Positions 4,626 through 12,482 of a DNA stretch of 58,471 nucleotides are shown here, one piece after another. The stretch is from the NCBI GenBank assembly GCA_044352465.1, contig JBILDU010000005.1, positions 1 to 58,471 on the forward strand, read 5' to 3'. Within the stretch, counting starts at the first letter, position 1; the number at the start of each line of letters is the position of its first letter. A program made the translations under genes and the position numbers. Under the pieces are notes generated by a model. The model did not search any database. It saw only the letters and a program-made list of their open reading frames with translations, and had not been told where the DNA came from. This DNA comes from Bdellovibrionota bacterium (GTDB taxonomy: Bacteria > Bdellovibrionota_C > UBA2361).

Positions 4626-7436
4626 CTACTCCGTTGGCCGTCCGGTACGTTTCCGTCGATTATCGCGCCGAATCTCGGCGAGATCTGATCGCCGTAGGTG
4701 TCGGGGGTGCCCCTCGATTTGTTGAGCCACCCGGTGGGCGAGCCGAAAGTCGCCGAAATCCAGTACGAGGTCCTCACGGTGCACCGCCGGATCCGCGGCC
4801 ATGGCGTCTTCTATCCATGCTGCCTCAGGCTTAGCGCTGAATTCGTGTTGGGTGAGGCGTCGCACGATAGTCCCGTTTCTCTGATTGACAAGGTTTATCG
4901 TTGCAGCGACATCGAACATCGTCCCGTCGAGATCGAAGAAAACGATCTCCCGCGCTGAATGGTGAGGTTTCACCTCACCGTTGCGAAGAGTTTGACAGAT
5001 CCCCCGCCAAATTCGTTCGGGATCGATTCGGTTGGCGTCGATAATCACGAGACGACCGGCGGGGAACTGCCGTGCCTTCTCTCGGGCAGCTTCGAGGTTG
5101 CGTTGCTCGTCCTCATAAAAGATAACTCGATCGTAGCGGCGGTGGAGCGGCTGTATCTCTCCCGTGGCGGTACGGTACTCTCCAGCGGCGAAATCCTCCA
5201 AGATCTGCGCCTTGCGAGCCGCCCCGCTGGGGAGATGACGAACCCGTAAGTTTAGCGTCTCGTCCGATACAAAATATAGATTCCGTTGCATGAAATCGTA
5301 CCCAGCGAATTGAGCGAGAGCATTGATATGTCCGAGGTTGCCTTCCCGACCACTTCGCAGGGTCAGGACTCCGAGCTCAGCACCCCGTATCTTAGCGGCG
5401 AGAAGGGCGAGGTGAGCCGGTTTGTAGGTCTTCAGGACATCGAAGACGATATCGCCTGTCGCATCGTAGAGCGCCGGGTCGACGAGGCAGCGGCTGAATT
5501 GGGCTCGAACGATGCGGGGTTCTTTCTCCTTATACGCCCGATAGAGTGGGTATATCTGGCTTGTATCGGTACGGTCTTCTTTGACGAAGGTGAGGTTTGC
5601 GAGAACCCACGCCCGTTCCCCGCCAGTCATCTGGTCGAATCGTTCCGCCATGAAGCGTTCAAATTGCTCACGTCGCTCCTGGGGGACGGGCCTGTGAACT
5701 TCGGTCGGCACCTCGTGGCGTTCTCGGGAGGTTCGGCTCGTTGAGACGAGCGCCATGATCCGGGGATTCCGGGCGTATTTCTGAAAATGCTCCTCAAGGA
5801 GTAAAAACTTCGAAGGAGCGAATTCGGCGAGTTGGCGGGGGAGACGAAAGTACTCCGCAAAGCTTACCGCGAAGTCCTCGCTCGGGTTAGCTCGGCTGTA
5901 GTCATCGATGCTCCACTCCGCGCGCACCGGATGACTAAACATCTTACGAGTATCGGCGTGGTAGACGAGAAAGACATCTTTTCCCTCGAGCTTAGCCACA
6001 TCATGGGCGACACGATATGAAACGCCATCGATAACCGCCGATTTCCCGCCGTGAGTAATGCGATATTTCGACGGCTCAACCACCGACCAACCGGAGATCC
6101 GGCGATATTCGCTCGAGTGAAAAAGTGGGGGATTGCGGCCATCCTCAAGTTTGGCTTGAGCTATGTCGTATCCCCGATCGCTCTCGTACACGTGAGCGAA
6201 CTCGTGGGTAAGGATGACCCCCAACGGACTTTTATTGCCGTAGGCTTTGCGGGTCTCGCTATCGACGTGGAGCCCCTCTCGTAGTTGGATCGTACCATCC
6301 TTAGCGATCCACAATCCGAAGACCGTCTCGGTCGGAGTAGAGAGCTCGTCATCGGGAGTTTTTCGGATCGTCTCCAAGTGTTTGCTCAAAACGACGAGAC
6401 ACTCCGGAAAACGCCGTAGGGTCCGATCAATTTCGGCGACCTCGGACGTGGACCAGAGATCTACCAGTCTTTGACCGCGTTCCTGGCGCAGCGTTATGGC
6501 GACACCGTATCGAAATTCGAGCTTAAGTTTCGCCGCAATCGAGTTGGCAAGCTCGCGAAACTCTGCCGCGTCGTCAGCCTCCTCCCGTTCCCGTGCGATG
6601 AGCCGAATGTTCGCGTCGATAATGTTGCGCATGCGCTTACCGAAGGGGGTATGGGCGAGTAGGGGATCGGAACGAACGATGCGGCGTGCTTCGCGGAGCG
6701 TTGCATCAAGTTCGTCGAGGTACAGCTCGGCCTGGTCTATCTTCGCGCAGCTCATGAGGGGGCACGGAATACGCAGATCGCGGAGCGAATCGATGATTTC
6801 GTGCCGTGCCAGGATATCAAGCATCTGAGCGCTTCTGGTGCGGCGCATAATCTGGGAGCCGACGTTGCGACACAATTCTTTGAGATCGGCGAGATCGTCA
6901 CAGGCGCGAAAAATCTCAGCGGCTAACTCATACCGGTCGCGGCGGCGTCCCGCGGTGTGGTCGAAGAGGTGTCGTACGAGATCTCCTTTCTCATCGTTCG
7001 AAAGGTGCTGAAGGAGAAACGGGACTTTGTCGCGGACGTACGGTCGAAGGTGCGCTTCCCCAAGACTCGCAGTGATAAAGGGAGTGATGAAAGCTACCCG
7101 TTTATCGGCAGGGGCGTTTTCGAGCGCTTTGGCGAGCTGCGGGAACGGCATACTGGCCCGGAGGATGATGGCGGGGTCGCTGGAGGCCCCGAGGCGAACG
7201 AGGTCGCGGCGGGTCTCTTTATCGAAGGTGCGAAGTTCCTTCAGCGGATCGAGTGCTTTGGTGACGTTGCCGGGGGTCGCGGCGGTATGAAGGCTCGGCG
7301 GTCCATCCGCACGATGGTTGGATTGAGGTGTGTGGTGCCCGAGATCGTTCATACAGCCGGTAGATCGTCGCGCGTCTTGACGCCGGGGCGAGTATACATG
7401 AGACCGCGAGCTTAAAGAAATTTGAGTGCCGCTCAC
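4626..7436 (-). CDS. Large fusion protein: zincin metallopeptidase-like domain plus C-terminal HAD-like domain; true start possibly 7352
   Basis: THEFAH followed by YSRANPSEDFAVSF (zincin); VLTLRS, K, FYEDEQRNL and FFDLDGT (HAD motifs). Confidence 0.65.
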   Translation of the reverse strand: MSGTQISLSSRSHVYSPRRQDARRSTGCMNDLGHHTPQSNHRADGPPSLHTAATPGNVTKALDPLKELRTFDKETRRDLVRLGASSDPAIILRASMPFPQLAKALENAPADKRVAFITPFITASLGEAHLRPYVRDKVPFLLQHLSNDEKGDLVRHLFDHTAGRRRDRYELAAEIFRACDDLADLKELCRNVGSQIMRRTRSAQMLDILARHEIIDSLRDLRIPCPLMSCAKIDQAELYLDELDATLREARRIVRSDPLLAHTPFGKRMRNIIDANIRLIAREREEADDAAEFRELANSIAAKLKLEFRYGVAITLRQERGQRLVDLWSTSEVAEIDRTLRRFPECLVVLSKHLETIRKTPDDELSTPTETVFGLWIAKDGTIQLREGLHVDSETRKAYGNKSPLGVILTHEFAHVYESDRGYDIAQAKLEDGRNPPLFHSSEYRRISGWSVVEPSKYRITHGGKSAVIDGVSYRVAHDVAKLEGKDVFLVYHADTRKMFSHPVRAEWSIDDYSRANPSEDFAVSFAEYFRLPRQLAEFAPSKFLLLEEHFQKYARNPRIMALVSTSRTSRERHEVPTEVHRPVPQERREQFERFMAERFDQMTGGERAWVLANLTFVKEDRTDTSQIYPLYRAYKEKEPRIVRAQFSRCLVDPALYDATGDIVFDVLKTYKPAHLALLAAKIRGAELGVLTLRSGREGNLGHINALAQFAGYDFMQRNLYFVSDETLNLRVRHLPSGAARKAQILEDFAAGEYRTATGEIQPLHRRYDRVIFYEDEQRNLEAAREKARQFPAGRLVIIDANRIDPERIWRGICQTLRNGEVKPHHSAREIVFFDLDGTMFDVAATINLVNQRNGTIVRRLTQHEFSAKPEAAWIEDAMAADPAVHREDLVLDFGDFRLAHRVAQQIEGHPRHLRRSDLAEIRRDNRRKRTGRPTE

Positions 7437-7963: not shown

Positions 7964-10072
7964 TTACATCCGCTCAATCGTCTCGATTCCAAGCAAGCTG
8001 AGTCCGTGCTTGAGCACTCGGCCGACGCTCTCGACGAGGCTCGCGCGGGCGAGTTTTAGGTCCGGCGTTTCCGCATTCACGACCGAACAGTGCTGATACA
8101 TTCGGCTAAACGCCTTCGCTAGCTCGTAGGTATAGCCGGCAAGGATGTGGGGGGAGTAAGCGGTAAGCGACTGTTCCACGACCTCGTGGTAGCGAGTGAG
8201 CTCGAGGATCACCGCCTGCTCGGTCTCGTGGGTCAGCAGGTCGTAATTTGCCGTCGTGGGATCGAGCGCTCCGAGCTCCCGCATGATAGAGCGGATCCGA
8301 GCATAGGCGTACATCATGTACGGCCCGGTGTTGCCGCTTTTATTGGTCCACGCCTCGAGGTCAAAAACGATCTTGGTATCGGCCGCTTGGTTGAGCATAC
8401 CATAGCGCATCGTGGCGAGGGCGATGCGGTGGGCGGCAGTCGCGATCTCCTCAGCTGGCCATTCGCCTTTGTATTTGTCGAGGAACTCTGAGTTAATCCG
8501 GTTTAAGAGGCGCTCTTGAAGCTCCGAGAAGTAGATAACTGAGCCCTTACGGCTACTCATCTTTCCGCTTGGAAGGACCACTTGGGCATAGGCCAGGTGA
8601 AAACATTTCTGTACCTGCGCATAGCCGGCGAGTTCGAGTACCTTGAAGACTTGTTTGAAGTGGTGAGTCTGTTGATCGTCAACAACGTAGATCGACCGAT
8701 CGATCTTATATTGCTCAAACTTTTTGCGGGCGAGTGCTAAGTCGCGGGTCGCATAGTTCGCCGTGCCATCTCGTTTAATAAGGATGCAAAATCCGAGGCC
8801 GTAGGTCGTTAGATCCGCCCCGACGGCTCCCGCCGAATCGATCAAGAGCCCGCGCTTCTGAAAATCTCGGGCGATCTCTTTGCCAGCTTCCCCGAACTCG
8901 GACTCGTAAAAGTAGTGGTCGAAGCGACAGTTTAGCCAACGATAAACTTCGTGATACTCCTCCATCGACCACTGTTTGGTCTCTTTCCACAGTGCGTGGA
9001 TCTCGGGGTCGGGCTTTTCGAGGCCTTGCAAAATAGCTGAGACCTCTTGTTCCCGTTGATTGAGTTCGGCGAGTACGGAGCGCCCTTCCGGGACCGCCCC
9101 GGCGATCCGACCCAGTTCAACTACGGAGGTGCCGAGTGGGGTAGTGGGGGGGAGCTGCGCTAGTTTGAGATTGTCGGCGCTCTCGGCGTACTCGAGTTCG
9201 CTCAGCACCATCCCGGTGCTGATGACGCCCCCCTTGTCGACCTGCCCCACAATCTTCCCGTTGAATTCAACGCCGACCGGCACGTAAGGAACGATATCGT
9301 TCGGAGCAGCACCTTGTCCCGCAGTGACGACCGTGACGGTATTCCCCGGAATATCGAGGCGCAAGACGCTCCATTTCGCCTCCTTAGGGTGGACGTCGAC
9401 CGTGCCTACTCGCGCGGCGATGACCCCCGGAAACGGCTTCGTGGTGAGCGAGCCGAGGTCGAGAAGGGTAACCGCTTGGCTATAGAACCTACCTAAGAAC
9501 TCCCCGCGGTGGTGCGCCGGTGGTGTCTCTTTTGAGCGCCGGTAGAGCCACAAGCATTTGGCGACGTGGGCACCTTCGTCCCCGATATAGTTCACCGGAA
9601 TCGTCGTGTGCCCACACCATTCGAACAGCCGCGTGAGGCTGTCGCCGAGGGAGGCGTTGCGCACGTGTCCGACGTGAAAAGCTTTATGGGTGTTAGGTTG
9701 CGAATACTCGACCATAACTCGGTCGGATTTACTGGTCCGCGGTGCGAGGTAGGTGCCGCCCAATATTGTCGGGAGGAGCTCGTGGGCGAGCATCGCTTTA
9801 TTAAGGAAAAAATTAAGATACGGACCGACCGGGTTCACTCGGGCGATGAGGCTAGTCGTAGCGACCGCCCCGGCGAGCTCGCCAGCAAGCGCTGGTGGGG
9901 GACGCCGGAGTGATTTCGCGAGGGTGAAACAGGGGAGCGCTAGATCTCCGTGCGTTGGGTCTTTCGGAGACTCTAACAGAGTAGCCAGATTTCCGATCTC
10001 GATAGCGGTTTCAGGGAAGGTTTTCTTGATGGCGTCGACAACGAGCGTCGCAACACGAAATTTAATATCCAT
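7964..10072 (-). CDS. argS: Arginine--tRNA ligase with an inserted OB-fold tRNA-binding-like domain
   Basis: GDLALPCF N-domain; VEYSQPNTHKAFHVGH (HIGH); KMSSRKG; GNTGPYMMYAYARI; DALR C-terminus ending ERM. Confidence 0.95.
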   Translation of the reverse strand: MDIKFRVATLVVDAIKKTFPETAIEIGNLATLLESPKDPTHGDLALPCFTLAKSLRRPPPALAGELAGAVATTSLIARVNPVGPYLNFFLNKAMLAHELLPTILGGTYLAPRTSKSDRVMVEYSQPNTHKAFHVGHVRNASLGDSLTRLFEWCGHTTIPVNYIGDEGAHVAKCLWLYRRSKETPPAHHRGEFLGRFYSQAVTLLDLGSLTTKPFPGVIAARVGTVDVHPKEAKWSVLRLDIPGNTVTVVTAGQGAAPNDIVPYVPVGVEFNGKIVGQVDKGGVISTGMVLSELEYAESADNLKLAQLPPTTPLGTSVVELGRIAGAVPEGRSVLAELNQREQEVSAILQGLEKPDPEIHALWKETKQWSMEEYHEVYRWLNCRFDHYFYESEFGEAGKEIARDFQKRGLLIDSAGAVGADLTTYGLGFCILIKRDGTANYATRDLALARKKFEQYKIDRSIYVVDDQQTHHFKQVFKVLELAGYAQVQKCFHLAYAQVVLPSGKMSSRKGSVIYFSELQERLLNRINSEFLDKYKGEWPAEEIATAAHRIALATMRYGMLNQAADTKIVFDLEAWTNKSGNTGPYMMYAYARIRSIMRELGALDPTTANYDLLTHETEQAVILELTRYHEVVEQSLTAYSPHILAGYTYELAKAFSRMYQHCSVVNAETPDLKLARASLVESVGRVLKHGLSLLGIETIERM

Positions 10073-10538: not shown

Positions 10539-11303
10539 ATGGTAGATTTTTCATTCGAAAATCGTGAAGAAGAGTTTAGGCTCGATGATGAATCGATTCC
10601 TGGACGATCGGGGCTGGTTTTCGGATTTGCGCCGAGTGCTTGGGATAAGGTCGTCGCTGCGTCCCTTTTTGATCCCAAAATCGCTGCGCAACGTCAGCCC
10701 GAGGGGGAGTTCAAGGGGGGGAGGGAGACGACGTCGGAGGGCAGCCAGCCTCCTCCCGCTGTGGCGAGTAGCGGATCGACACAGCCGCTGCGTGGACCGA
10801 CCAAGCTCTCGAATCTGACCTTCTCGAGTAAGAGTGAGGCGGTGTGTGGCCTAATGCTCGAAAAGTATATCCCCGGATTTCAGCTCGTCGCGGGAGAGAC
10901 TTTTCAGGTTGCAGTGGGGTCGAAACGTTTTGATTTCAAAGTGGTGGGCGTCTTTATCGAGTTTCATCCGGTCCAGTTGCGCCACGATTTCACCTCCCAA
11001 AATGCGTACCAGAAGTTTCTGAGTGCGCTCGGACGTCTTCCTGAGTGGCAGCGTAATGAACTCGCCGACATATTGCACGAGGAGTTTGCCGGTCAATACG
11101 CCAAACGTCGACGCGATGTCCTGAATTCATTCGAGCAAACGAAGAGCGCTGAGCTGGTTGTCTGTCACGATCGAGGGGATTTCGTTCGCAGGGTGATCCG
11201 ACGTTTCGGTGGGGCGGGGGTTCCCTCCGAGACAAAGCTCTTACGCGAGTTTGAGGCTCTGTATCGAAGGATGCAGCGCCGATTCCACCAGGAGGACTGC
11301 TAG
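10539..11303 (+). CDS. Hypothetical protein, possible PD-(D/E)xK nuclease-like fold
   Basis: SKSEA helix followed by FDFKVVGVFIEFHP, resembling a DF..(I/V)ExH nuclease core. Confidence 0.45.
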   Translation: MVDFSFENREEEFRLDDESIPGRSGLVFGFAPSAWDKVVAASLFDPKIAAQRQPEGEFKGGRETTSEGSQPPPAVASSGSTQPLRGPTKLSNLTFSSKSEAVCGLMLEKYIPGFQLVAGETFQVAVGSKRFDFKVVGVFIEFHPVQLRHDFTSQNAYQKFLSALGRLPEWQRNELADILHEEFAGQYAKRRRDVLNSFEQTKSAELVVCHDRGDFVRRVIRRFGGAGVPSETKLLREFEALYRRMQRRFHQEDC

Positions 11304-11570: not shown

Positions 11571-12482
11571 CTACGCACTGCCCTCCAAAATCAGGTCTTC
11601 AAAAGCGACGTCGAGCGCTTCGGCGATCCGCATGACCGCCCCGATCGATACGTTATGTTTGCCGTGCTCGACCGCGCTGATGTAGGCCCGATCGAGGCCA
11701 GCGGAGTGGGCGATGTCTTGTTGGCTCAACCGTTGGGCGCGCCGATGCTTCTGGATCATCTGCCCAATATGGAGCAGTCGTTGATCGAGCGAGGACGCCG
11801 AGGGCGGAAGCCCCACGAGTTGGCGCGCTATTTCGATCGAGTCCTGAGCTGAGGTGGTGAGACTATCAGCGCCGAGCGCATCGATCTCGCCCCGCGCCGT
11901 CGTCGTTGCTTGACCTCCAATAAGAATCTTTGGGCGGTTGGGGAGGGTTTTAAGAAGTCGGATCGCCTCTTTCGCTCCGGGAAGCCCCGCCTTGACCGTT
12001 ATTGAAAGCCCCACAACGTCGACTTTTTTCTCCCGCGCGACCTGGAAAATCTCACCGGGGGGGGCATCGGCTCCCAGGAAAACTACCGACCATCCATCCA
12101 TGTGGAGGAAGTCGGATATCATCCGTCCCCCGATAGAGTGCATGTCGCCGGCGGGAGCGGCGATAAGGATCTGTTTGTTCAGTCGGGGGCGGGGCTTCAA
12201 CATCGGACGGAGTCGCCCCATCTCGGAGAGGGTAATCTGGGTGCCCATGTGTTCTTGGGCGATCGAGATTTTTCCCTCGACCCACAGAGCGCCGAGTCGG
12301 GCTTGGCTCGGCATCAAGATGTGCAGATAGACGTTTTTAGGAGTCACCCCGGATGCGAGCGCCTCGTTGATGGCGCGAGTTGCACTTTCTGCGTTTCCTT
12401 CCAGAAGCGCTGCGATGTAACGCTCCCGGTTCTGCAGGATGGTTGAGCCGCGCTTTTCGGAGACCTTTGGAGACATAAGCAT
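11571..12482 (-). CDS. Cobalamin-binding regulator: B12-binding_2 + B12-binding + C-terminal XRE HTH
   Basis: W-x9-EH (WVEGKISIAQEH); DMHSIG; VVGLS; ILIGG; C-terminal LSQQDIA...DRAYISAVEHGKHNVSI. Confidence 0.85.
   Translation of the reverse strand: MLMSPKVSEKRGSTILQNRERYIAALLEGNAESATRAINEALASGVTPKNVYLHILMPSQARLGALWVEGKISIAQEHMGTQITLSEMGRLRPMLKPRPRLNKQILIAAPAGDMHSIGGRMISDFLHMDGWSVVFLGADAPPGEIFQVAREKKVDVVGLSITVKAGLPGAKEAIRLLKTLPNRPKILIGGQATTTARGEIDALGADSLTTSAQDSIEIARQLVGLPPSASSLDQRLLHIGQMIQKHRRAQRLSQQDIAHSAGLDRAYISAVEHGKHNVSIGAVMRIAEALDVAFEDLILEGSA

Follow-up and report, generated by a model that had tools for sequence, protein, structure and literature searches.

The 58,471-nucleotide window analysed here (positions 1 to 58,471 of contig JBILDU010000005.1, assembly GCA_044352465.1, from a freshwater Bdellovibrionota bacterium of GTDB lineage Bdellovibrionota_C; UBA2361) encodes an arginyl-tRNA synthetase (ArgRS) whose catalytic domain contains an additional, complete OB-fold domain of the B2 type, as in the beta subunit of phenylalanyl-tRNA synthetase (PheRS-beta, PheT). 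The domain appears to have been captured by the ancestor of a single ArgRS clade, into the loop that joins the two Ins1 helices at their tip, and the clade appears then to have spread patchily over several phyla. This structural and evolutionary account is regarded as close to certain.

The gene, argS, is a 702-codon frame on the minus strand (window positions 7964..10072) that is open throughout, and its product passed the curated equivalog cut-off of the NCBIfam argS model TIGR00456 (394.3 bits against 261.65). Both ArgRS-specific Pfam domains are present, Arg_tRNA_synt_N (PF03485, residues 9-90, E = 1.6e-14) and DALR_1 (PF05746, residues 586-702, E = 7.3e-31), tRNA-synt_1d is matched as two pieces, and the fold corresponds to that of solved ArgRS. 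AlphaFold modelling of the full-length protein on a 50-row alignment gave a mean pLDDT of 93.7 and a pTM of 0.88. In 50 relatives the class I signatures HVGH (residues 133-136) and KMSSR (504-508) show no or almost no variation. The Add1 domain is specific to ArgRS and binds the tRNA D-loop, with an A20-recognition motif described for E. coli (PMC3956977); the pair that aligns with this motif consists here of N87, invariant, and Y85, nearly invariant, in the same 50 relatives. HIGH, KMSK, Add1 and DALR are all intact, and the protein belongs to a distinct ArgRS subfamily with the motifs EYSQPNTH and KAFHVGHxR. A single argS locus was found in the source genome (G000; 3.13 Mb in 170 contigs, 94.9% complete), and the OB-bearing ArgRS is likewise the sole argS in five other genomes, three of which are single chromosome-sized records. 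The 702-aa protein is the organism's housekeeping ArgRS, and from its sole-argS status here and in the five other genomes we infer that it arginylates tRNA-Arg. A preliminary description of the window had reported a 702-aa ArgS interrupted after the HIGH motif, against a typical bacterial length of about 550-590 aa; the reading frame and Pfam matches agree with the former, and the latter is in line with the solved bacterial chains (578-592 aa) and the canonical ArgRS frames of the window's order (about 570-636 aa).

The interruption had been placed at residues 212-322, which correspond exactly to window positions 9107-9439, and the sequence there reads as it had been quoted. The inserted segment is slightly wider than these limits, spanning residues ~206-332 (about 125 residues), since in the insert-less members of the subfamily the equivalent of the helix at 189-204 passes directly, through a short loop only, into the equivalent of the helix at 333-352. 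Because the insert-less relatives share both of these flanking helices, both represent the native Ins1 hairpin. Across 103 aligned ArgRS the length of the region corresponding to residues 186-352 is bimodal: 29 rows have 160-208 residues, and the remaining 74 have 35-52. Residues 48-189 of the window's protein align with residues 45-187 of E. coli ArgRS, and residues 350-702 with 217-578, so that residues 190-349 take the place of E. coli residues 188-216, i.e. ~160 residues stand where E. coli has ~30. E. coli Ins1 spans residues 164-221, of which 178-187 and 203-204, at the tip, lack order in the crystal structure (PMC3956977). The captured domain thus occupies the tip of the Ins1 helical hairpin within the catalytic domain.

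By sequence, profile and predicted structure, the insert is a PheRS-beta B2-type OB domain in a new host and not a PheT, which bears out the earlier proposal of a PheT-B2/Trbp-like OB fold nested in the catalytic domain. The Pfam scan located tRNA_bind (PF01588) at residues 219-315 (profile positions 3-95 of 96), nested between the tRNA-synt_1d pieces. The match scored 20.5 bits when the whole protein was scanned and 26.0 bits (E = 9.8e-6) with the insert alone, without reaching the gathering cut-off of 27. Chance does not account for it, as the family was found at E <= 1e-3 in 48 of the 50 aligned relatives, with a best value of 1.2e-12. A word-indexed protein search with residues 150-400 as the query found 153 proteins, of which 120 were listed, and 98 of the latter carry a precomputed PF01588 match. 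Among NCBIfam models, the insert matched positions 42-152 of pheT_bact (TIGR00472) with E = 5.4e-6, the TapR and YtpR models being weaker, and the ArgRS inserts of relatives matched positions 41-158 of the same profile with E-values of 1e-24 to 4e-5. These included 1e-24 (G002), 7e-19, 7e-15, 1e-13 and 2e-11 in the window's order, and 1.6e-20 to 8.8e-13 in five genomes of other phyla. In a sequence search of solved structures, residues 32-147 of P. aeruginosa PheRS-beta matched residues 204-318 (E = 0.0025).

The predicted structure leads to the same assignment. In the AlphaFold model, beta strands run from residue 218 to about 310 at a pLDDT of 94-96 between the two Ins1 helices, and the insert folded alone (residues 186-352) reached a pLDDT of 94.0 and forms a five-stranded OB beta-barrel. 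A Foldseek search of the Protein Data Bank with this folded insert returned 25 matches at E <= 1e-3, and the top six were all PheRS-beta chains or models. The best was 4p71_A (E = 7.4e-9), followed by 6oz5_B, with Thermus PheRS-beta (1b7y_B/1pys_B) superposing at an rmsd of 1.8 A over 112 columns with 33% identity and further matches to 2iy5_B and M. tuberculosis PheRS-beta chains. YtpR (3bu2), the MetRS C-terminal domain (5h34, 1mkh), Trbp111 (8vtz, 3ers) and CsaA (1gd7) followed after PheRS-beta. The whole-protein model also retrieved 4p71_A (E = 1.6e-7), ranked below ArgRS structures.

An alignment with ten PheT N-termini revealed common motifs across the entire B2 domain (HP..., VVCG, GD.VA.A, G.xSxGM..S..E and LP...G..AE), with one difference apparent by eye, namely a basic K.KIRG before GxxSxGM in the PheT rows where the ArgRS rows have ..DK.G. 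Unlike B2 of PheT, the insert lies in a class I ArgRS, is flanked by native Ins1 helices and has no preceding B1. When the 111-aa insert was searched against 1.84 billion representative proteins, 99 matches were obtained at E <= 1e-3. ArgRS cores account for 44 of them and PheT cores for 32, and the remaining 23 were mostly short pieces of these two kinds together with two long low-complexity proteins; no third architecture beside ArgRS and PheT was present among these 99 matches.

Because the source genome is a draft of 170 contigs, an assembly or binning artefact joining pheT-derived sequence into argS had to be considered, and misassembly was also the alternative raised by the preliminary description. 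Both junctions of the insert, however, are bridged with 0 differences by contigs of three other runs (X5, 8884-9800; X6, 8800-9590; X7, 9016-9589), and no joints or indels were found across the junctions in contigs of other runs. The identical layout recurs on three complete chromosomes, those of Saltatorellus ferox Poly30, Sulfidibacter corallicola M133 and one Bdellovibrionales metagenome-assembled genome (MAG). With misassembly excluded by the bridging contigs and the three complete genomes, an artefact is vanishingly improbable. A fourth freshwater run (X9) contains a close strain variant of argS that differs by 8 substitutions, and by no indels, over 9068-9795, which shows the insert to be stable from one strain to another. 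All the runs listed as containing the argS region are, according to their records, lake or freshwater metagenomes.

The relatives listed by the protein search are almost all 700-720 aa long; Planctomycetota, Acidobacteriota, Oligoflexia and Chromera velia are among the sources named for them. When species-representative genomes were scanned with two subfamily motifs, 591 relatives were obtained, for which taxon names are NCBI labels. Among the best 80 of these 591, the long form, as judged by match length, was present in 22, from Planctomycetota, Holophagae/Acanthopleuribacteraceae and Bdellovibrionota, and the insert-less remainder came from Oligoflexus, Bacteriovorax, Nannocystaceae, SAR324/Lambdaproteobacteria, DPANN archaea and Patescibacteria.

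A gene tree was inferred from 103 ArgRS (73 loci of the scan and 30 from the window's order) after removal of the insert columns, using IQ-TREE in quick mode with LG+G4. Six truncated or odd loci (L023, L046, L051, L061, L074 and L081) and L047, which has no frame of at least 300 aa, were left out; L023 appears by match length to be insert-bearing. All 29 insert-bearing ArgRS fell into one clade (SH-aLRT 99) requiring 1 change, nested among insert-less subfamily members, and the canonical ArgRS of the window's order lay across the midpoint root from it. A single clade nested in insert-less relatives favours a single gain, and the tree points to such a gain of the OB domain as the simplest reading, one that relies on the canonical ArgRS as outgroup as the root of the tree was not inferred. 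Phyla are intermixed within the insert-bearing clade, indicating that the gene has moved horizontally.

Occurrence by genome is similarly patchy. Within the window's order, the OB-bearing ArgRS was found in 8 of 41 genomes and the insert-less subfamily form in 2, most of the 41 having a canonical ArgRS of about 580 aa with ~30% identity. In the window's own small GTDB phylum, 24 of 124 genomes carry it (16 of the 73 high-quality ones). It was also found in 6 of 301 sampled Planctomycetota, the phylum of S. ferox, in 2 of 301 Acidobacteriota, the phylum of Sulfidibacter, and in 4 of 301 Bdellovibrionota, the phylum of the Bdellovibrionales chromosome; one further match each in Planctomycetota and Bdellovibrionota was a PheT. 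The survey therefore does not support the suggestion, as put forward, that the insert is a lineage marker: it marks one enzyme clade, present in several phyla and in one Chromera velia protein, and not an organismal lineage. From the gene tree and this patchy presence across phyla, the insert is the mark of a horizontally spread type of ArgRS.

The Chromera velia protein (720 aa, named as such in UniRef) has the same OB insert, and some longer relatives (785-903 aa) are extended at the N-terminus; P0116 has a lysine-rich low-complexity stretch within the OB domain. These observations, which concern P0062, P0116, P0118 and representatives of 846-903 aa, suggest that this bacterial type of ArgRS also exists in eukaryotes, possibly as organellar copies. 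Five genomes of the window's order (G003, G004, G006, G026 and G037) contain another long ArgRS, with frames of 690-731 aa (a fragmentary match of 534 aa in G003), only 26-28% identity to the window's protein over the C-terminal part and no OB-insert match. Another genome of the order, G035, carries a canonical ArgRS gene alongside one for the insert-less subfamily form (C13 and C54).

Selective constraint on the OB domain was assessed among 27 clade members, in which mean pairwise identity is 0.38 for the OB domain, 0.37 for Add1, 0.49 for DALR and 0.57-0.60 for the catalytic core. Between the source genome and its congener G001, dN is 0.24 in the OB domain and 0.07 in the C-terminal rest; as dS between the two is saturated (~2.6) and has no defined value for residues 2-188, the assessment relies on dN and on the identities. 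A possible explanation for the faster evolution of the OB domain than of the catalytic core is that the insert is a tolerated passenger, captured once by recombination at a flexible surface loop, kept because its removal is unselected or would destabilise Ins1, and with no specific role in aminoacylation, and the insertion point does correspond to the loop that is disordered in E. coli ArgRS (PMC3956977). The insert-less sister enzymes, which are functional housekeeping ArgRS, would also be in keeping with a dispensable domain. However, no loss of the domain was observed among the 29 clade members in the tree, although these are deeply diverged (44-55% identity) and the gene has passed from phylum to phylum. 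The core motifs of tRNA_bind are conserved in the 50 relatives, with S285, G287 and G314 invariant and H228, G282, M288 and E294 nearly so, and conservation of the OB domain equals that of Add1, a functional domain. The OB domain is complete, confidently folded and under purifying selection in every clade member sampled. A passenger without a role is accordingly considered unlikely.

The PheT of the source genome (696 aa, G000:C46:7285-9228, locus L005 1477..3567 on the minus strand, outside the window) lacks B2/tRNA_bind, passing from B1 straight into the B3/4 region with Pfam matches to B3_4, B5, tRNA_synthFbeta and FDX-ACB only. Across the 41 genomes of the order, B2-less PheT was found in 32 (3 of them from fragmentary matches) and B2-containing PheT in 9, counts that derive from kin genomes and are not independent; one genome, G022, has both kinds (C28 and C30), and no PheT body was found in G002. 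B2-less PheT is also present in Sulfidibacter corallicola and a Holophagae MAG. Compensation by the OB-bearing ArgRS for a lost PheT B2, with the domain relocated from PheT to ArgRS, was rejected as a rule, because loss of B2 is general in the order with or without an OB-bearing ArgRS and 3 of 5 carriers outside the phylum keep B2. The paired genes in G035 (ArgRS) and G022 (PheT) may reflect either duplicate xenologs or contamination of the bins.

Apart from the ArgRS insert, tRNA_bind occurs in the source genome in one protein only, a free-standing one of 140 aa (PF01588, 94.7 bits; OB net charge +4). The gene for this protein, which has a proline-rich N-terminus, is located outside the window (G000:C159, locus L003 1489..1911, minus strand), and by reading of the neighbouring open reading frames (ORFs) it probably lies between DNA polymerase III delta'-like and TatD-like genes, where metG often sits. 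Similar tRNA_bind frames of 129-171 aa occur in many genomes of the order.

The function favoured for the captured domain is that of an extra cis contact for tRNA-Arg. Carried on the two-helix Ins1 stalk, the OB domain would lie beside the catalytic pocket where the acceptor end of the tRNA enters, and could there contact tRNA-Arg near the acceptor/T arm, improving its capture or positioning. Ins1 and Ins2 have been reported to flank the catalytic pocket and to modulate its opening and the binding of the acceptor stem (PMC11152978, citing Kim et al. 2014), and class I enzymes, ArgRS among them, reach the acceptor stem on its minor-groove side (PMC9908026). Further, ArgRS activates arginine only with tRNA bound (PMC3956977), so an additional tRNA contact would be expected to aid activation too. 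The position on the stalk, the link between Ins1 and the pocket, the minor-groove approach and the tRNA-dependent activation together make contact with tRNA-Arg the most economical function. As a mechanism this is plausible but tentative, and the proposal as a whole, capture of a B2 domain that provides a cis contact for tRNA, is mildly favoured.

Several observations weigh against this proposal. The OB core is net acidic, with a mean charge of -2.6 (range -8 to +3) over 27 ArgRS inserts, compared with a mean of -3.8 for 10 PheT B2 domains and +4 for the genome's free-standing Trbp111-like domain. B2 of Thermus PheRS is not known to touch tRNA-Phe in the crystal structure of the complex, so that no tRNA role is proven for the donor domain itself. 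The insert-less sister ArgRS evidently work without an OB domain, and the window's own insert falls just below the Pfam cut-off (26.0 against 27 bits). The genome encodes 44 tRNAs by ARAGORN, of which four are tRNA-Arg (CCG, CCU, UCU and ACG; 74-77 nt) with an ordinary GGAUAGAGC D-loop. These genes look ordinary, and hence there is no missing identity element that would call for an extra binding domain; an unusual tRNA-Arg in this genome as the reason for the insert was rejected on these grounds. A homodimer prediction for two copies of residues 207-331 (50-row alignment) scored 0.00 and, made without controls, gives no evidence either way.

The charge of the domain could instead indicate a protein-protein docking or scaffold module that tethers ArgRS to some other translation component, such as PheRS or a further synthetase, an elongation factor or the ribosome, since it is acidic like B2 of PheT and unlike the basic free-standing tRNA_bind protein, and B2 is not known to contact tRNA in PheRS. 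Such tethering is also compatible with the distribution of B2 in the window's order, where all 7 OB-ArgRS genomes in which PheT was found have the B2-less form, leaving B2 only on ArgRS. However, 32 of the 41 genomes of the order have a B2-less PheT, 25 of them without an OB-bearing ArgRS, 3 of 5 OB-ArgRS genomes in other phyla keep a normal B2-containing PheT, and no partner was identified. A docking role is therefore judged improbable, and the specific version in which B2 on ArgRS physically joins PheRS, whose beta subunit here lacks its own B2, or another translation component is very improbable. If this were true, a domain relocated from PheRS would have given rise to a multi-synthetase assembly in a bacterium or to a device for handing over tRNA.

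The captured OB domain has parallels in known synthetases. Trbp111, CsaA, YtpR, the MetRS C-terminus and EMAPII share the Pfam family and fold of the insert and are likewise auxiliary OB domains attached to or working with a synthetase, and the better-studied Trbp111/EMAPII-type domains are dimeric and bind tRNA. Unlike the internal ArgRS insert, all of these are free-standing proteins or terminal extensions, and they are weaker matches to it than B2 of PheRS-beta, which is the best match by both profile and structure and has a similar acidic net charge. AARS Online (PMC11580382, 2024) names AsxRS, AspRS, AsnRS, LysRS-II, MetRS, PheRS-beta and TyrRS as synthetases bearing OB/EMAP domains, and not ArgRS. 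The closest precedent is in bacteria of the candidate phyla radiation (CPR), in which B2 is fused N-terminally to TyrRS and C-terminally to LysRS and many PheRS-beta lack B2 (Mukai et al. 2017, PMC5370408). As with ArgRS here, B2 has been captured by another synthetase, and the B2-less PheT of the window's genome forms a further parallel, but the CPR cases are terminal fusions via a long helix, whereas in ArgRS the domain is inserted internally, within the catalytic domain. The accessible portions of that study (PMC5370408) do not mention ArgRS.

Relative to canonical ArgRS of known structure (E. coli 4OBY, yeast 1BS2/1F7U and T. thermophilus 1IQ0), the window's protein has the same five-domain plan with HIGH and KMSK, comprising Add1, a catalytic domain with Ins1 and Ins2, and Add2/DALR (Foldseek E ~3e-34, TM 0.8 on target). 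It differs in the ~125 extra residues at the Ins1 tip, in an identity of only ~20-23% to the solved chains, and in its placement in a separate subfamily together with some Bdellovibrionota, Nannocystaceae, SAR324/Lambdaproteobacteria, DPANN archaea and Patescibacteria (NCBI labels). No description of an OB/tRNA_bind insertion within ArgRS was found in the accessible text of the open-access literature, and the available sections of the chromerid synthetase paper (PMC6723311) make no mention of an OB insert in ArgRS. As automatic Pfam annotation marks the domain on many entries, the architecture is already visible in databases; what seems to be new is its description as an internal insertion of B2 type at the Ins1 tip, gained once and spread across phyla.

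Features of argS and its product within the 58,471-nt window, from the N-terminus to the C-terminus of the protein
Feature	Residues	Window positions	Strand	Basis
argS coding sequence, 702 aa + stop	1-702	7964..10072	-	ORF list; TIGR00456
Add1 N-terminal domain	9-90	9803..10048	-	Arg_tRNA_synt_N, E 1.6e-14
HIGH motif (HVGH)	133-136	9665..9676	-	H133, V134, G135 and H136 invariant in 50 relatives
Ins1 hairpin helix 1 (native)	189-204	9461..9508	-	DSSP of AlphaFold model; shared with insert-less relatives
Inserted segment (OB domain + short linkers)	~206-332	9077..9457	-	Alignment with insert-less relatives
OB-fold core, tRNA_bind / PheRS-beta B2 type	219-315	9128..9418	-	PF01588, pheT_bact, AlphaFold, Foldseek
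Ins1 hairpin helix 2 (native)	333-352	9017..9076	-	DSSP; shared with insert-less relatives
KMSK-type motif (KMSSR)	504-508	8549..8563	-	K504, M505 and R508 invariant, S506/S507 nearly so in 50 relatives
DALR anticodon-binding domain	586-702	7967..8317	-	DALR_1, E 7.3e-31

The ORFs flanking argS, 4626..7436 (minus strand, 936 aa) and 10539..11303 (plus strand, 254 aa), gave no Pfam match at E <= 1e-3. Further along the window, 11571..12482 (minus strand) encodes a 303-aa protein with B12-binding_2 and B12-binding domains and a C-terminal HTH_3, resembling a regulator of transcription that depends on cobalamin and possibly senses light.

OB domains of the Trbp111, EMAPII and B2 kinds, appended to synthetases, are a recurring route by which these enzymes gain tRNA affinity or partners, and in the present case a complete B2 domain lies inside the catalytic domain of the sole ArgRS of its host and has been kept in a monophyletic clade that has moved between at least four bacterial phyla, one eukaryotic carrier being reported as well. 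The insert provides a clean marker with which the horizontal replacement of an essential gene can be followed. The OB-bearing ArgRS also offers a second, simpler host in which the role of B2 may be learned, and if the domain does contact tRNA, a module of this kind near the active site would constitute a natural experiment on how extra contacts tune a class I enzyme.

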